Assembly (NCBI GenBank): GCA_001001285.1
Contig: LCKG01000003.1
Coordinates: forward strand, 27,746-91,745
Source: Parcubacteria group bacterium GW2011_GWC1_45_13
GTDB lineage: Bacteria > Patescibacteriota > Minisyncoccia > UBA11713 > 2-01-FULL-45-33
Direction: 5' to 3'
Length of the DNA stretch: 64,000 nucleotides
A program made the translations under genes and the position numbers. Below the pieces are notes generated by a model, which made no database searches, was not told the DNA's origin, and saw only the letters and a list, made by a program, of their open reading frames with translations. Of this stretch, positions 11,694 to 41,288 are shown piece by piece (position 1 is the first letter of the stretch; each line of letters starts with the position of its first letter).

Positions 11694-12074
11694 TTAACGG
11701 GAGAAAGTTTTTTGGATTAAAAAGCCCAGAAGCCAGCCGATGAGGCCGAGGGCGATTGGAAAATAAATGTGGGAGAGGTCAAAATAAACTTCAAAAATCA
11801 CCGCGGGGATGAGCAAAACGCCAATCCACCAGTATTTTTTTGAACCGCCGAAGGCGGTGAAGAGGAGAGTGAGGAAGAAAATGTATGAAAGTGGTATACC
11901 TAAAAGAAAGTTTTCAGCAGATTTCGGCGTGCTAAATAGACTTCCCTCACTAGCACCCTGGGGGAAAAAATAAACATACAGGTTGCCAACCTGATTTGCA
12001 AAAAAATAAGCCAAAACTAAAACAACAATCAGAATGCAAATATTTTTTATTAAATTTTTTAGATCTTCGCTCAT
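11694..12074 (-). CDS. Hypothetical integral membrane protein
   Basis: 126 aa with about four predicted TM helices. 4-nt overlap with the downstream lipase gene. Confidence 0.55.
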   Translation of the reverse strand: MSEDLKNLIKNICILIVVLVLAYFFANQVGNLYVYFFPQGASEGSLFSTPKSAENFLLGIPLSYIFFLTLLFTAFGGSKKYWWIGVLLIPAVIFEVYFDLSHIYFPIALGLIGWLLGFLIQKTFSR

Positions 12075-14461
12075 AAATTATTTAATAGCCAATTAATATC
12101 TTCTTTTAATAAGTTGTAAGCTTGGTCGTTGATGTTTTTGGGATGTTCTCGTTCCAATTCGGCAAGGAACGTTTTTAACGTCTTTTGAGTGATGGGTTTG
12201 TTGTGGATATCTATCCTCTCTAATTTCCCAATCAGAGTGTTTTTAACGCTCTTTTTGGTTATCCACCCCAAAGAATACACGCGCTCAATATCGGAGATTG
12301 TACTCTGGATAGTCGCAATGACACGGAACACCGTCTCTTGATTCGCGAAGTTTCCTACAAAATCAACGGAGTTTACTGCAACCTTATGCTCTCCCAACTT
12401 CTCAAAGAATAAATCAATTATATCGCCGTTCTTTACCATTCTATCATCAAATTTAATCTCTGCGGAGGCAATGCCGGATTCCACATCGCCCACATCCACG
12501 TTTATGAAAATGGTTTCGGAGCGGAGATAATCGCGGGAGACAGGGGAAAGGATATTAATGCTTGGCGGGGTTACATCTTTTGGTTTTATTTCTAAATCGG
12601 TAGGGCTTTCGTTGTTTACTTTTAAGTCCAACTCCGTAATTAATCCGGGCTGGGTTTGGGAGGTATAGTCTTTATCCACAGAGATATTATCTGAAATATA
12701 GCCCGTGGCGATGGTATATTCGCCGCTTCCGGTTCCTTGAGCTTCAATTTTATATTCGCCGTCCAATGGATTAGGGATAGTTATATATTCGTCGTCCGTA
12801 AGAAATCCGGAATAAAACGCGCCATCAATTTGATTAATTTCGTTCCCGCTCGCGAAGTCTTTGCCAATTCTTTTCCCGTCCGGCGCAGTTACTAAAACAT
12901 CAACAGGGGAGAGGATTTTGATGAGGAGGAGTTTCGGATTTATCGATAAGCCATGATCAATCAAGATTGCGGCATTTGCGCCAGTAAGTTTTTTGAAGAT
13001 TAAGCCCTCGGCATTTGTTGGTAACGCATTATGCCCTGAAATCAATTGATTCAAATCACTTACTATAAATTCTCCGCTGCCAGCGGGTACAGTTCCGTCG
13101 CCGAATCCAAATTCAAAGCCTCTATCTGCTGTTGAGCCATCAAATCCATCTGGATAACCATTTTCCCATAAAGGAGTACTGGGAGAATTCACAACTCTAA
13201 TAGCATTTAGAGTGCTGTTATCTCCCAAATCGCCGACTACATTAGTAATTTTTATATTTTTATCAAAAAGACTTAAAACGCTGGTTTTAAGATTTTCAAG
13301 AAAAGTATTTTGAGGATAATTATTTGGATAAGTACGCAACGTTCCGCTATCTTTATCGCGTAGGTAATTGTAAGTTGGGAGAAGTTCTTGGACAGAAGAA
13401 ATTGGTTTGTTTCTTACATAATCAAATAGACTAGAGTACCTCGCCTTTTTAGCTTCTCTACCTAAAACAAATTTCATAAACCAGTCTCTTAGTCTTTCGC
13501 CGGTGTTGCCTGTTTTTGTACCAATCTCACCCGCTTCCCACATAAGATAAGCAAAAGGAGCCCCTAAATGCGGCGTTCCTAAAAAGATCAGTTGGTCAAC
13601 GTCGTTTTCGTAGTTGCCCGACTGGATGTATTGGCGCGCGACGAGGCCGCCCATGGAATGGGCAACAAGGTCAACTTTCGCGCAGTGGCAAACATTTTGG
13701 ACTTCGTTTATTTTGTCGCGAAGCTGGACGGCGGTAATCACATTAGATTGCCGCCAATCGTACGGAAAAGTGAAAAGATCTTTGCCGTCAACATATCCGT
13801 TGGCTTTTAAGGTCGCAATCAGGTCGTCATAGGTATGAAAAATCGGGTCAATCACCCAGACGCCGTTTTTGTCCGACGAGCCCAAAATCCCGGGAATGAT
13901 TATGACGGGGTCTGGCTTTGCTGGCGCTTGTATGGCGCTTTTTATATCAAAATGGATTAAGGCATGCTGGAAATCACCAATCCCTTTTTCAAATAAATCC
14001 ACTGTTTGCGCGGAGCTGGACGCGTCCGAAACGGCTACGAAAAAAGACTGGTTTGTCCCCAGCGGCATTTTAATTATGCCGTCAACGTTTCTATTGGCAC
14101 CGTCGCAGGAAAAGAGAGGAAAGTTAGAGCCAGCTTGGTAAAGCTTGGAATGGCCGATTTCATTACCTCTTGTTCCGTCATAAGTAAAAACATCAAAGCG
14201 AGGATTCAGAATATTGCCATTCGCACATTTGCTGTATACTTGTATGGCGGCAGGAGTTGTAGAGCCGATTAAGGTAAGTGGAAAACAATCCGTGCTGGAG
14301 TTAATTAGGCGCAGAAGCTCCCAGTTGTTCAGCGGCCCGGTAAACTCCGTGATAAACGTGCAGTCGCTCGATTGCAAAGAAGCATAATCCGCGAAGGCAA
14401 TTTGTGCCGTAAGCAGGGCGTAAACAGCGAAAAAAATGGTTAAAGCGTGTTTTCGCATTGC
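12071..14461 (-). CDS. Secreted lipase/esterase-like alpha/beta hydrolase (GxSxG)
   Basis: Signal peptide MRKHALTIFFAVYALLTAQIAFA (start taken at the second Met). Lipase nucleophile elbow VAHSMGGLV. About 800 aa with a long C-terminal beta-rich region. Confidence 0.7.
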   Translation of the reverse strand, partial: AMRKHALTIFFAVYALLTAQIAFADYASLQSSDCTFITEFTGPLNNWELLRLINSSTDCFPLTLIGSTTPAAIQVYSKCANGNILNPRFDVFTYDGTRGNEIGHSKLYQAGSNFPLFSCDGANRNVDGIIKMPLGTNQSFFVAVSDASSSAQTVDLFEKGIGDFQHALIHFDIKSAIQAPAKPDPVIIIPGILGSSDKNGVWVIDPIFHTYDDLIATLKANGYVDGKDLFTFPYDWRQSNVITAVQLRDKINEVQNVCHCAKVDLVAHSMGGLVARQYIQSGNYENDVDQLIFLGTPHLGAPFAYLMWEAGEIGTKTGNTGERLRDWFMKFVLGREAKKARYSSLFDYVRNKPISSVQELLPTYNYLRDKDSGTLRTYPNNYPQNTFLENLKTSVLSLFDKNIKITNVVGDLGDNSTLNAIRVVNSPSTPLWENGYPDGFDGSTADRGFEFGFGDGTVPAGSGEFIVSDLNQLISGHNALPTNAEGLIFKKLTGANAAILIDHGLSINPKLLLIKILSPVDVLVTAPDGKRIGKDFASGNEINQIDGAFYSGFLTDDEYITIPNPLDGEYKIEAQGTGSGEYTIATGYISDNISVDKDYTSQTQPGLITELDLKVNNESPTDLEIKPKDVTPPSINILSPVSRDYLRSETIFINVDVGDVESGIASAEIKFDDRMVKNGDIIDLFFEKLGEHKVAVNSVDFVGNFANQETVFRVIATIQSTISDIERVYSLGWITKKSVKNTLIGKLERIDIHNKPITQKTLKTFLAELEREHPKNINDQAYNLLKEDINWLLNNL

Positions 14462-15009: not shown

Positions 15010-15045
15010 CCCAGCCCCCCGATGGACATCGGGGGGCTGGGTTTA
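15010..15045 (+). terminator. Rho-independent terminator after rnpB
   Basis: CCCCAGCCCCCCGATGGACATCGGGGGGCTGGG hairpin followed by TTTAT. Confidence 0.6.
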
Positions 15046-19085: not shown

Positions 19086-19114
19086 TTGACAAAACATTAT
19101 TTTGGGTGTATAAT
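19086..19114 (+). promoter_or_regulatory. Consensus sigma70 promoter TTGACA-17-TATAAT
   Basis: TTGACA at 19086..19091 and TATAAT at 19109..19114. About 100-nt leader to the ATG at 19221, which is preceded by GGAGG. Confidence 0.55.
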
Positions 19115-19220
19115 GGGATTTAGAATGATTAGTCTTTTATGCCCGGCTGTATTCCAAGAAATTGGAAGAATAGCGGCGGCCGTTTGCCTGCTTAGGTCAA
19201 AAAACGGTAATGGAGGATAT

Positions 19221-19631
19221 ATGCATCGAGCTGGAGTGCAATGGACACGTGGCCCGGAGCCACGAGTGGTAGCCGACAAAATTTCCCCATACATCTCTGA
19301 CCAATTCGGCCAATCCGTTCTTTATCGGACGGTGCGGAATTTAAACGAGGTGTATATTGATTGTGAAGAGTTCGATACTGCCGTCATACTTAGCGAACAA
19401 CTCCAAAAAGTCGTTTTCGAGAGTTTTGGATTTTTTTGCGATAGGCAGGTCGACGATAATTACATCGGGATGTTGCTTATCGAATACAAAGAGACTGTCG
19501 AGAAAGCGATCGCAGATCTGAAAGCCACAAGGTCGTGGTTTAAGGACTCTCGGATCGCGGAGATAAGATGGAGGCTCGAGAAAGTTTACATGCGTCCGGG
19601 GCCGGCAATATCCAGCAAGTCGCCGCTTTAA
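19221..19631 (+). CDS. Hypothetical protein
   Basis: Start chosen at the ATG with SD GGAGG 5 nt upstream. The ORF-track 19086 start would overlap the promoter. 136 aa. Followed by a terminator. Confidence 0.45.
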   Translation: MHRAGVQWTRGPEPRVVADKISPYISDQFGQSVLYRTVRNLNEVYIDCEEFDTAVILSEQLQKVVFESFGFFCDRQVDDNYIGMLLIEYKETVEKAIADLKATRSWFKDSRIAEIRWRLEKVYMRPGPAISSKSPL

Positions 19632-19712: not shown

Positions 19713-21506
19713 ATGCCAAATATCAGGAATTTCTGCATAATCGCCCACATTGACCATGGAAAATCCACGCTTGCCGACAGGATGCTGGAAATTACCAATA
19801 CTATTGAAAAACGCAAAATGCGGGAACAGTTTTTAGATATGCATCCGCTTGAGAGAGAAAGGGGAATCACTATCAAAATGCAACCTGTGAGGATGAATTA
19901 TAAAAATTATATTCTTAACTTGATTGATACCCCCGGGCATATCGATTTTAACTACGAAGTATCGCGAGCGCTGGCCGCGGTGGAAGGAGCAATTTTATTG
20001 GTGGACGCGACTCAAGGCGTGGAGGCGCAGACGCTTTCAAATGTTGAACTGGCGAAATCACTTAATTTAAAAATAATTCCGGTAATCAACAAAATTGACC
20101 TTCCGCAGGCAAGAATCGCAGAGACGAAGGAAGAAATAAAAAATCTTTTTGGGGAAGTCGCCGAGAATATTTTATTGGTTTCAGCGAAAACCGGTGAGGG
20201 GGTGGAAAATCTTTTGGAAGAGATTGTTAAGAAAATTCCTTCCCCCGACTTGGACGTCGGACGTCCAAGTGGACGTCCGACGTCCTTTAACGAACCGCGG
20301 GCGTTGATTTTTGATTTTGAATATTCCGCGCACCGGGGAGTAATAGCGCATGCCAGAATCTTTGACGGAGAAATAAAAAAAGGCCTGAAGCTGAAATTAG
20401 CGGAAGCCAAAGAAATTTTTACAGTGGGCGAGGTGGGGATTTTTAAACCGGAGCTTGAAGCTAAAAACGCGCTAGCGGCGGGCGAAATCGGATATATTGT
20501 CACAGGCATCAAAGAGGCGAAAGTAGTGCGTGTTGGAGACACTATTTTGAGAGAATCCTCTGACCTGCCGGCGCTCGCTGGCTATAAAGAAATTATGCCG
20601 GTGGTTTTCTCCAGCATTTATCCGGAGGACCAAGACAGGTTTGGGGATCTAAGGCGCGCTTTGGAAAGATTAAAGCTTGTGGACAGCGCGATTTTTTTTG
20701 AGGAAGAATCCAGCGGAGTTTTGGGCCGTGGTTTTCGATGCGGATTTTTGGGGGCGCTCCATTTGGAAATTGTGGTGGAACGCCTTACCAGGGATTTTGG
20801 CGTCAAAGTTATTGCTGCTATGCCCACGGTGAAATATAAAATAAAGACCAAAAAAGGCGAATTTGAAATTTATTCGCCGCATAAATTTCCAGATGAGCAC
20901 GAGATTTTGGAAGTTTTGGAGCCTTACATAACAATAGAAATTCTTGCTCCGCCAGAAAAACTTTCCGGAATTTTGAAACTCTTGGGCGAGCATGAGGCGA
21001 AAATTTCCTCTACAACTAAATTTTCAGAATCCCGCATAAAGATAGACGGAGAGATGCCGCTTCGGGAGCTGATGCGCGATTTTTTTGACGCATTAAAAAG
21101 CGTTTCGCAAGGCTACGCTTCTTTGGGTTACGAGTTTTTGGACTCCCGGCCGGCGGATTTGGTAAAGCTGGATGTTTGGGTGGCTGAAGAAATCGTACCG
21201 GCTTTTTCAAGAATTGTTTCCCATGCTCGGCTGGAGTATGAAGCTGAGGCGGCTGTGGAGAAGCTTTATAATATTTTGCCTCGTGCGCTTTTTTCTTTAA
21301 AAATTCAGGCGAAAGCCCAGGGGAGAATTTTGGCATCTAGGTCTCTAAAAGCCATGAGCAAAGACGTAACGGGGTATCTTTACGGCGGCGACAGGAGCCG
21401 TAAAATGAAACTTTGGAAAAAACAAAAAGAAGGCAAAAAAAGACTTGGCGCCCGTGCGGATTACAATATCCCGCCGGAAGTCTATTTGAAGATGATTAGG
21501 AAATAA
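19713..21506 (+). CDS. lepA: Elongation factor 4 (LepA)
   Basis: IAHIDHGKSTLADR…DTPGHIDF…NKID plus the LepA-specific C-terminal domain (…GGDRSRKMKLWKKQKEGKKR…). Carries a roughly 13-aa palindromic insert (see findings). Confidence 0.95.
   Translation: MPNIRNFCIIAHIDHGKSTLADRMLEITNTIEKRKMREQFLDMHPLERERGITIKMQPVRMNYKNYILNLIDTPGHIDFNYEVSRALAAVEGAILLVDATQGVEAQTLSNVELAKSLNLKIIPVINKIDLPQARIAETKEEIKNLFGEVAENILLVSAKTGEGVENLLEEIVKKIPSPDLDVGRPSGRPTSFNEPRALIFDFEYSAHRGVIAHARIFDGEIKKGLKLKLAEAKEIFTVGEVGIFKPELEAKNALAAGEIGYIVTGIKEAKVVRVGDTILRESSDLPALAGYKEIMPVVFSSIYPEDQDRFGDLRRALERLKLVDSAIFFEEESSGVLGRGFRCGFLGALHLEIVVERLTRDFGVKVIAAMPTVKYKIKTKKGEFEIYSPHKFPDEHEILEVLEPYITIEILAPPEKLSGILKLLGEHEAKISSTTKFSESRIKIDGEMPLRELMRDFFDALKSVSQGYASLGYEFLDSRPADLVKLDVWVAEEIVPAFSRIVSHARLEYEAEAAVEKLYNILPRALFSLKIQAKAQGRILASRSLKAMSKDVTGYLYGGDRSRKMKLWKKQKEGKKRLGARADYNIPPEVYLKMIRK
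20252..20285 (+). repeat. Perfect 15-bp inverted repeat (GGACGTCGGACGTCC aagt GGACGTCCGACGTCC) inside lepA coding sequence
   Basis: Seen directly. Four GACGTC hexamers. Encodes LDVGRPSGRPTSF, absent from canonical LepA at this position. Confidence 0.8.
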
Positions 21507-22028: not shown

Positions 22029-22622
22029 ATGCCGGAAATTTTCACAAAAAAGAATATAACGATTTTACTCACTGTTTTATTTCTGGGAGCTGTTATATAC
22101 ATAAGCTTCGGATTTTTGCCGGTTCTTAAAGTTGAGGGGACATCGGTGAGCTATTCAGAATTTCAAAAAGTTTACGGCGCGATCGGCTCTTTTGACAAGA
22201 TTTCCAGAAAACCTGACCCTGCAGGTGGCGGTGGGAACAGCGCGGCGCCGGAAGAGATGAAAAAAATGGCTCTGGAAAGCATTATAGAAAGTAGGCTATT
22301 GGACGAACTGATAAAAGAAGCAAATCCGGAGCTCGCGAAAAAAGCCGAAGAGATTCTGCAAAAAACATTGCTGGAAAATAAAAATTTGTCTTTAGACGAG
22401 GCTTCCAAGATCCTTTACGGGATTTCAGCGGCTGATTTTCAAAAATTGGTTTTATTGCCGCAGGCAAAAAAAGATGCGCTGACGGATTATTACGAATCCA
22501 ATCCGGAGCGCCTGGCCGACCTCTGGACGGCACTCCTAAAAAGCGCTAAAGTGCAAATCTACTACCCGGGATTTTACTGGGAGAACGGAGAAGTTCACCC
22601 CGTTAGAGATTCATCACGCTGA
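22029..22622 (+). CDS. Hypothetical membrane-anchored protein (SurA-N-like?)
   Basis: N-terminal TM then a helical domain. Stop overlaps the start of the next gene (TGATGA). Confidence 0.5.
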   Translation: MPEIFTKKNITILLTVLFLGAVIYISFGFLPVLKVEGTSVSYSEFQKVYGAIGSFDKISRKPDPAGGGGNSAAPEEMKKMALESIIESRLLDELIKEANPELAKKAEEILQKTLLENKNLSLDEASKILYGISAADFQKLVLLPQAKKDALTDYYESNPERLADLWTALLKSAKVQIYYPGFYWENGEVHPVRDSSR

Positions 22623-22882
22623 TGATTTATACTTATGTCATAAAAAGCAGGAAAGATGGCAAATGGTATGCTGGGTCAACCAATGATTTACGGAAGCGTT
22701 TTAACGATCATAATCGTGGACAAGTTTTTTCCACAAAAGGAAGGAGACCGTTTGAGTTGATATACTATGAAGCTTGTTTGGACGACCATGATGCTCGAGT
22801 ACGCGAAAAGTATTTAAAATCAGGCCCAGGCAAAAGATACTTGAAAAATAGATTAAAACGCTCCCTATCTCTAACGGGGTAA
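22622..22882 (+). CDS. GIY-YIG nuclease superfamily protein (YhbQ/UPF0213-like)
   Basis: YTYVIKS…GKWYAGSTNDLRKRFNDHN…ELIYYE carries the GIY…YxG…R…H…E signature. 86 aa. Confidence 0.75.
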   Translation: MIYTYVIKSRKDGKWYAGSTNDLRKRFNDHNRGQVFSTKGRRPFELIYYEACLDDHDARVREKYLKSGPGKRYLKNRLKRSLSLTG

Positions 22883-22893
22883 AAATTGAATAA

Positions 22894-22964
22894 GCGGGTA
22901 TGGTTTAATGGCAGAATGATTGCTTCCCAAGCAATAGATCGGGGTTCGATTCCCCGTACCCGCA
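22894..22964 (+). tRNA. tRNA-Gly (anticodon CCC)
   Basis: Cloverleaf: acceptor GCGGGTA/TACCCGC, anticodon loop TTCCCAA, T-arm CGGGG-TTCGATT-CCCCG. No encoded CCA. Confidence 0.85.
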
Positions 22965-40613: not shown

Positions 40614-41288
40614 ATGTCTAGAAATAATACGATAGCGGTTATAATTTTTGCGGTTTTAGCGGCTGGTGCGGCGGGTTTTTTAACATTTCGCTCCTCAACA
40701 TCCGATGTTAAATCCCAAAAAACATCGGATGTTTTCCCGCGAAATATGGAGGAGGGCAATTCAATCTCTGATGGGATTAAACCCCCGGCTCCGGCTCCGC
40801 AAAATGACGAACTCAATGCTCTTAAAACCGCTGCGCTAGAAAGAAAAATCCCCACGGGGAACGAGGCGGCAACAAAAGAATTAAAAGATTTATCTTCGCA
40901 ATTAAAAAGCGAACCGAATTATATTCAAGGCTGGCTCCAGCTCGGAATCTTAAGAAAATATTTGGGCGATTACGAAGGGGCCAGTTTGGCTTGGCAATAT
41001 GCAACATTTTTGCGCCCGCAAGACTATATCGCTTTTTCCAATCTAGGAGACCTCTATCATTATTATCTGCGTGATTTTCCCAAAGCGGAAAGATACTTGC
41101 GAAAAGCCGTGGATGTGAAGCCCGATTATGTCGCGGGATATAAAAATCTCTTTGACCTTTACATGCTTTCTTACAAAGAAAAGGAAAATTTAGCCGAGCC
41201 CGTTTTACTCGAAGGCATCAAAAAAAATCCTGATGACCATTACCTAGAAACTATTTTAGTTTCTTATAAAAATGATAATCAACGCTAG
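40614..41288 (+). CDS. TPR-repeat protein with N-terminal TM anchor
   Basis: TPR units (YIQGWLQLGILRKYLGDYEGASLAWQYATFLRPQDYIAFSNLGDLY…). Confidence 0.65.
   Translation: MSRNNTIAVIIFAVLAAGAAGFLTFRSSTSDVKSQKTSDVFPRNMEEGNSISDGIKPPAPAPQNDELNALKTAALERKIPTGNEAATKELKDLSSQLKSEPNYIQGWLQLGILRKYLGDYEGASLAWQYATFLRPQDYIAFSNLGDLYHYYLRDFPKAERYLRKAVDVKPDYVAGYKNLFDLYMLSYKEKENLAEPVLLEGIKKNPDDHYLETILVSYKNDNQR

Follow-up and report, generated by a model that had tools for sequence, protein, structure and literature searches.

The 64-kb window analyzed here, a stretch of 64,000 nt from contig LCKG01000003.1 of Parcubacteria group bacterium GW2011_GWC1_45_13, contains a lepA gene whose open reading frame (ORF) runs in frame through a perfect inverted repeat; this palindrome, its relatives in other genomes and the enzyme that may move it are the subject of this analysis. 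The left arm, GGACGTCGGACGTCC at positions 20252-20266, is separated by AAGT (20267-20270) from the right arm, GGACGTCCGACGTCC at 20271-20285, and the two arms are fully complementary, extending to 16 nt around a 2-nt loop once the A and T of the loop are counted as paired. Four GACGTC hexamers start within these 34 nt, at 20253, 20260, 20272 and 20279, and when the arms, the sites and the translation were checked, the original prediction of a perfect 34-nt inverted repeat with four such hexamers in frame in lepA was confirmed. Perfect hairpins of this kind (stem ≥15 bp, loop ≤12 nt) would be expected by chance ~9e-4 times in 64 kb of the window's composition; folded as RNA, this one reaches -32.9 kcal/mol (z -5.7), and folded as DNA -20.3 (z -5.4). 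The identity of the host gene is supported by the Pfam domains GTP_EFTU, GTP_EFTU_D2, EFG_C and LepA_C and by a match to Thermus elongation factor 4 (EF4) with E 7e-167. A protein identical to the window LepA is on record for Candidatus Giovannonibacteria GW2011_GWC2_44_9, and because the identical protein was read in 24 contigs, with three loci examined from ENA and JGI assemblies, the palindrome is no assembly artefact. An Rfam scan of the whole window returned four tRNAs only, with no match at the palindrome.

The hairpin is built from two palindromic units (Table 1). Its proposed extent of 20252-20285 is correct for the hairpin itself but too short on the left for the element, where 20248-20270 is by itself a perfect 23-nt palindrome; the second, shorter palindrome follows directly, and because the centre bases of the two are opposite, unit 2 is inverted relative to unit 1. 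None of the six frames of the element contains a stop codon. In the protein, the element corresponds to residues 180-192, LDVGRPSGRPTSF, which had been assigned to the inside of domain II. Pfam limits instead place the G domain (GTP_EFTU) at residues 3-177 and GTP_EFTU_D2 at 209-278, with domain II beginning near 196-209, the insert appears as a gap in the alignment of the window LepA to Thermus EF4, and in the AlphaFold model residues 175-195 are coil, with pLDDT values below 50 at 185-190, the lowest confidence in the protein. The insert is thus located in a disordered loop, within the linker between the G domain (domain I) and domain II.

The 23-nt unit belongs to a dispersed family. Its 21-nt core, CTTRGACGTCSGACGTCYAAG, occurs in at least 120 stretches of metagenome contigs, where by our reckoning ~1 would be expected by chance, and the matches listed include 96-97 non-redundant sites with unrelated flanks, which argue against one duplicated segment as their source. 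An A precedes the core at 89 of 97 sites and a T follows it at 93 of 97, and further out there is a weaker symmetric cc...gg, from which we take the unit to span ~23-29 nt with the consensus (cc)ACTTRGACGTC-S-GACGTCYAAGT(gg). These flank preferences are symmetric and are therefore part of the palindrome itself; no one-sided insertion target motif was seen in the flanks of the non-redundant sites. Copies of the family are spread across Giovannonibacteria and other Parcubacteria at many loci, some of them intergenic, and a scan of IMG/VR viral contigs for the repeat gave zero matches.

At least eight ORFs besides lepA contain the same arrangement, a complete unit and then the inner 15-mer, in frame, in both orientations and in several frames. 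These doublets measure 34-44 nt, and each of the 11 distinct sites combines one G centre with one C centre (G/C or C/G), which means that the two units are inverted with respect to each other. Together with the dispersed unit, these doublets substantiate the original suggestion of a palindromic-repeat insertion, and the search for further copies that accompanied it succeeded outside the window. For about two thirds of the non-redundant sites (61 of 96), the surrounding span is free of stops over 450 nt or more, and three translations recur: LDV[GR]R[PL]S, which is the frame used in lepA, L[RG]R[PR]TSK and WTSDVQV. A TTAGAC variant of the repeat leaves two of the three frames per strand open, and its listed in-gene copies use those two only. 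All six host proteins tested are recognizable enzymes by Pfam (LigA, ArgS, MurD, GatA, GltX and UvrB), and in LigA, GltX and UvrB the repeat sits between Pfam domains, so that residence in frame in a linker is a property of copies in many genes.

The repeat is also found at fixed positions around a transposase gene. In one related locus, L006 (L numbers denote loci and P numbers proteins), the gene directly upstream of lepA has the Pfam domain Y1_Tnp, and homologs are present in L039 (two copies within 10 kb), L055 and L058, with a partial one in L025. In three distant genomes (L006 5923-6612, L055 5355-5894 and L058 4233-4883) the transposase gene is the immediate upstream neighbor of lepA, and in L039 the gene at 11960-12619 is 1.6 kb downstream of lepA. 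Hairpins of the form GGAAGTC-S-GACTTCC surround the L039 and L058 transposase genes, and their GAAGTC-S-GACTTC is one compensated base pair apart from the GACGTC-S-GACGTC of the window. Among loci retrieved solely for containing the 21-mer, tblastn identified 17 that encode the transposase, and in 8 of these 17 the repeat occurs ~30-40 nt before the start and again as an in-frame copy at +174 to +186; seven of the eight carry an additional copy just past the stop, at ~+636 to +653 of the ~645-nt gene, and a second internal copy, at +435 to +474, is present in some of the transposase genes. The in-frame copy reads QL[RG]R[PR]TSKLV (for example QLRRPTSKLV) just before the HUH motif, and its carriers, at ~+177, include L110, L123, L156, L178, L194 and L195. 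The L160 transposase has no +177 copy, yet its protein length there is equal, and comparison of these sequences suggests that the repeat may replace sequence at this position instead of adding to it.

The transposase has 214 aa, and H80 and H82 of the HUH motif as well as Y140 are invariant in an alignment of 14 members, all 14 of which match Pfam Y1_Tnp (best E 7.9e-11), with both displayed scores exceeding the cut-off. At E up to 1e-10 the family comprises 2424 proteins, and members from Giovannonibacteria, Azambacteria and other Parcubacteria are named by their sources either ‘transposase’ or ‘REP element-mobilizing transposase RayT’. One identical 214-aa sequence, the L110 transposase P0246, is found in four Parcubacteria taxa including Azambacteria, on 52 contigs, a distribution that points to horizontal movement, to several copies or to cross-talk in binning. 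In the window, the ORF upstream of lepA at 19086..19631 was considered as a degenerate transposase and rejected, as it lacks a Pfam match and does not resemble the transposase of L006; it is unrelated (168-181 aa).

An alignment of 120 LepA homologs, combined with a rough neighbor-joining tree, revealed turnover at the lepA linker. The linker is short in most Patescibacteria, and many Giovannonibacteria carry inserts of variable length at exactly this position, with peptides that resemble translated palindromes, as their DNA bears out. The lepA genes of four related loci contain hairpins with differing stems: AGACGTCGGACGTCT-aagt-AGACGTCCGACGTCT in L004, CTTGGAAGCCGGACTTCC-aagt-GGAAGTCCGGCTTCCAAG in L016, GGAAGCTCGGCTTCC-aagc-GGAAGCCGAGCTTCC in L006 and CTTGGAAACCGAGTTTCC-aagt-GGAAACTCGGTTTCCAAG in L007. 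Sister lepA genes share the hairpin architecture with stems free of GACGTC (e.g. GGAAGCCGGACTTCC and GGAAACCGAGTTTCC). The nearest insert-free orthologs have an ordinary linker, PKPKEGESES or PEPKKGEAEP, ahead of RALIFD, and the close relative L008 has a different palindromic element in its lepA linker (type B, described below), TCAACACTCGGTGTT-N11-AACACCGAGTGTTTTCCCGCG, which L012 carries in reversed orientation. Insert types are patchy on the tree, where P0010, of the L008 type, falls inside a set of proteins that carry the window-type insert; on this sequence comparison, the tree suggests several gains or losses of the lepA insert.

The stem variants are not confined to lepA. Those of sister lepA genes also occur outside it, in L091, L118 and L173, and the variant specific to the L004 genome, ACTTAGACGTCGGACGTCTAAGT (TTAGACGTC..GACGTCTAA), is present there in an LTD-domain gene as well as in lepA. 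We had initially read the differing stems as compensatory evolution of a lepA structure, a reading that was abandoned because the same variants are found at unrelated loci. Orthologs with the same or a similar peptide (L004, L108 and L153) encode it in palindromic DNA too, and not, as the original prediction had thought conceivable, in non-palindromic DNA. Point mutations that break the palindrome in near-identical strains (P0006, with V to A; L108 and L153) fit a passenger rather than a constrained structure. The linker is 10 residues longer than in empty orthologs, yet the doublet is 38 nt long, so that either the insertion was not clean or the site has been remodelled since.

The lepA copy is not the only such element in the window's genome. 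A copy of a related class, type B, ATTTCGCTCCTC-AACATCCGATGTT-N11-AACATCGGATGTT-TTCCCGCGAAAT, shows that more than one kind is present; its two units of 13 nt each, AACATCCGATGTT and AACATCGGATGTT, are separated by 11 nt and accompanied by outer inverted arms, and it is translated within its host ORF (Table 1) as STSDVKSQKTSDVFPR. Other type B sites are in the UvrB gene of L198, in an LTD-domain gene of L004 and at L200 8305.

Table 1. Coordinates of the lepA palindrome, its component units and host gene, and the type B element, in positions of the window.
Feature	Position	Strand	Description
REP-like unit 1	20248..20270	no strand	perfect 23-nt palindrome ACTTGGACGTC-G-GACGTCCAAGT with an 11-bp stem and a 1-nt centre; the dispersed unit
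REP-like unit 2	20271..20285	no strand	inner 15-nt palindrome GGACGTC-C-GACGTCC; centre opposite to that of unit 1
Miniature REPIN-like hairpin from units 1 and 2	20252..20285	no strand	34 nt, 15-16 bp stem
Codons of LDVGRPSGRPTSF	20250..20288	+	translated form of the element, disordered linker loop
lepA (elongation factor 4)	19713..21506	+	597 aa; Pfam domains and Thermus EF4 match
Type B palindromic element	40685..40745	no strand	in frame in ORF 40614..41288 (TPR-like protein)

We regard it as likely that the lepA palindrome is a copy of a miniature repeat resembling repetitive palindromic elements (REP) and the REP doublet-forming hairpins (REPIN) made from them, a passenger that LepA tolerates and that the transposase probably moves in trans. 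By analogy with IS200/IS605 elements and with REPs mobilized by a REP-associated tyrosine transposase (RAYT), the enzyme would recognize the repeat hairpin in single-stranded DNA, cut it and re-join it elsewhere, thereby moving the repeat in trans. One copy would have landed in frame in the surface linker of LepA between the G domain and domain II. Since no stop interrupts any of the six frames, the element would then be translated, as a 13-residue disordered loop rich in Gly, Pro, Ser and Arg that is presumably neutral for LepA and carried as a passenger.

REP/REPIN-RAYT systems are found in Proteobacteria, including E. coli, Pseudomonas and Neisseria (PMC3337134, PMC3116915, bioRxiv 10.1101/2021.07.10.451892). 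The elements described here share with them a short palindromic unit at many loci, inverted pairs that give a larger hairpin, an IS200-related HUH/tyrosine transposase whose gene is flanked by the repeat (here in related contigs) and sequence variants that differ between genomes. They differ in their hosts, which are Patescibacteria, and in that the transposase gene holds its own repeat in frame. On this view the lepA element would represent a new, intragenic and miniature form of the REP/REPIN-RAYT kind.

Several observations weigh against this interpretation. REPINs are ~100 bp long and ‘almost exclusively’ extragenic (bioRxiv 10.1101/2021.07.10.451892), whereas the doublet here is 34-44 nt, its unit is a perfect palindrome, the lepA copy is intragenic and about two thirds of the sites lie in genes, where they are translated. 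The best NCBIfam match of the transposase is indeed NF047646, ‘REP-associated tyrosine transposase’, but its 24-34 bits are far under the cut-off of 80, and among solved structures a profile search gave only a marginal match, to ISDra2 TnpA (E 0.036), with no match from a single-sequence search. Within the 64-kb window there is neither a transposase of this family, by tblastn and profile search, nor a further copy of the 15-mer with up to 3 mismatches, so that the unit is present there once. We infer ongoing mobility rather than observing it as filled/empty polymorphism in one population. Finally, every lepA lineage with the window-type insert has it in one orientation and one frame, which is not expected from random independent insertion. 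This constancy would fit an ancient insertion with subsequent loss and conversion into the repeat variant of the respective genome, recombination between lepA genes, or selection on the peptide.

An alternative that we consider possible, while leaning the other way, is that the enzyme belongs to an ordinary self-mobile insertion sequence (IS) of the IS200/IS605 type and that the palindromes are solo ends or derivatives of it akin to miniature inverted-repeat transposable elements, rather than REPINs served by a host-resident, vertically inherited RAYT. The mechanism would be identical and the family label alone would differ. The repeat does bracket the transposase gene in the manner of IS ends, the copies flanking the L156 gene share the same centre base and so are in direct orientation, L039 holds two transposase copies within 10 kb, and Pfam describes Y1_Tnp as ‘Transposase IS200 like’. 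The identical protein in four Parcubacteria taxa and 52 contigs points the same way, as do the many carrier contigs that are very short, which multi-copy repeats breaking assemblies would produce. Against this, 214 aa exceeds the length of a typical IS200 TnpA, the RAYT model is the best NCBIfam match, and the homologs directly upstream of lepA in L006, L055 and L058 recall the fixed chromosomal positions reported for RAYT genes. Members of the IS200/IS605 family such as IS608 and ISDra2 resemble the present system in their HUH/Y1 transposase, in having hairpin ends on both sides and in the single-stranded DNA transposition to be expected from such an enzyme, and differ from it in their shorter protein, in that the ends here are a perfect palindrome also scattered alone, and in the one-sided target motif, which is missing here.

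The remaining explanations do not involve a mobile element. A functional mRNA or DNA hairpin specific to lepA and kept by compensatory evolution, for instance one that pauses ribosomes where the two domains meet or that serves regulation or processing, would account for the perfect hairpins in several Giovannonibacteria lepA linkers, whose stems differ around a constant AAGT or AAGC loop, for the high stability of the window hairpin and for the constant frame and orientation in all lineages. It is nevertheless unlikely, given that the identical 21-23-mer is present at 96-97 unrelated sites in intergenic DNA and many other genes, that the stem variants recur outside lepA, that close orthologs lack the hairpin and one close relative has a different element instead, and that near-identical strains have mismatches and Rfam gives no match; the lepA hairpin could still have been co-opted secondarily. 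Local formation of the palindrome through template switching or through repair primed by a hairpin appears less probable again, even though palindromes in the G-domain part of lepA in other Patescibacteria pair a conserved coding arm with its reverse complement, so that local palindrome formation seems to occur in this gene. Neither arm of the window palindrome derives from flanking lepA sequence, and the sequence is identical to a repeat at ~100 other sites and around transposase genes. For the same reason, that the element matches the repeat family rather than its local flanks, the ‘recombination footprint’ envisaged in the original prediction finds no support. Its further proposal of a hotspot for a GACGTC-specific (AatII-type) restriction-modification system fares worst and can be regarded as practically negligible: four GACGTC sites do fall within 34 nt, but the rest of the 64 kb contains 5 against an expected 6.4 +/- 2.8, neither avoidance nor enrichment, and the family stems of sister genomes lack the hexamer.

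If the palindrome is a REP/REPIN-like passenger, it also invites comparison with other small repeats that live inside genes. Rickettsia palindromic elements (RPE), reportedly described by Ogata et al. in 2000, are ~100-150 bp long and lie in frame in conserved housekeeping genes of Rickettsia and relatives, where they add extra surface segments; no transposase is known to be associated with them. By their descriptions, the two are alike in that a palindromic repeat lies in frame in protein-coding genes (here lepA, in a disordered linker, and at least eight other ORFs) and is compatible with function, whereas the element here is 23-44 nt long and its host is a member of the Patescibacteria. Tiny (~20-80 nt) mobile hairpins able to reside within conserved genes are also represented by the very small dispersed repeats (SDR) of heterocystous cyanobacteria, reportedly described by Elhai et al. 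in 2008, and, in fungal mitochondria, by double-hairpin elements, GC clusters and byps, the last of which are skipped by the ribosome; their hosts and sequences are others, and they are not known to have a RAYT link. In contrast to the byps, the element described here keeps the reading frame open and is presumably translated. RPEs are also mentioned in PMC1779305.

Palindromes of another kind were noticed in a different part of lepA. In other Patescibacteria the beta2-beta3 loop of the LepA G domain, within the first ~300 nt of the gene, contains perfect palindromes of 12-20 bp (L084 10170-10268; also L039, L047, L055, L061, L062, L064, L069, L074, L078, L081, L083, L085 and L012). One arm codes for the conserved VRMI[WY] or ILNLID and its reverse complement sits in a variable insert, and synonymous differences in the ILNLID codons are mirrored in the partner arm; these palindromes look like inverted duplications of flanking sequence. 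The same loop holds an in-frame insert of ~190 residues with a PF13366 match in the lepA genes of L010 (10001-12295) and L022 (10001-12373), which encode the 789-aa P0042. The window lepA has no insert in its beta2-beta3 loop.

Elsewhere in the window, a perfect GC-rich 15-bp palindrome, CCCAGCCCCCCGATG-ga-CATCGGGGGGCTGGG, lies at 15010-15041, is followed by a T-rich stretch and is located upstream of a large TPR gene. Similar hairpins with altered yet complementary stems occur at L004 5924, just upstream of its TPR gene, and at L010 5528 and L015 1523, a few kb upstream of lepA. This palindrome looks like a terminator, and Rfam detected no RNA gene adjoining it. At 22622-22882, a stand-alone ORF of 86 aa with a GIY-YIG nuclease domain lies directly upstream of a tRNA gene (22894-22964).

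We are evenly divided on whether these observations together define a previously undescribed REP/RAYT-type system in Giovannonibacteria and other Parcubacteria, one whose repeats would have left intergenic space to become mainly gene-dwelling miniature hairpins, open in all frames, that form loops in the inter-domain linkers of essential proteins such as LepA, LigA, GltX and UvrB, with a fixed in-frame copy in its own transposase gene shortly ahead of the HUH motif, where it may permit self-regulation, and with the lepA linker as a recurrent landing site. In the literature searched, no paper links Patescibacteria or Parcubacteria to RAYT or REPIN, and a wider search for palindromic insertions lying in frame in genes of the Candidate Phyla Radiation gave nothing relevant.

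For annotation, positions 20252-20285 are best described as a repeat-element insertion, neither a regulatory site nor a cluster of restriction sites. A hairpin of 23-29 nt and an enzyme of 214 aa make a compact pair that is open to biochemistry. Translated repeats of this kind are a natural map of insertion-tolerant positions in essential proteins and a source of lineage-specific loops and length variation, which can confuse alignment, gene calling and assembly. In the gene-dense genomes of these ultra-small bacteria, elements of the REPIN kind appear to persist mostly inside genes, as stop-free sequences in the linkers between protein domains.

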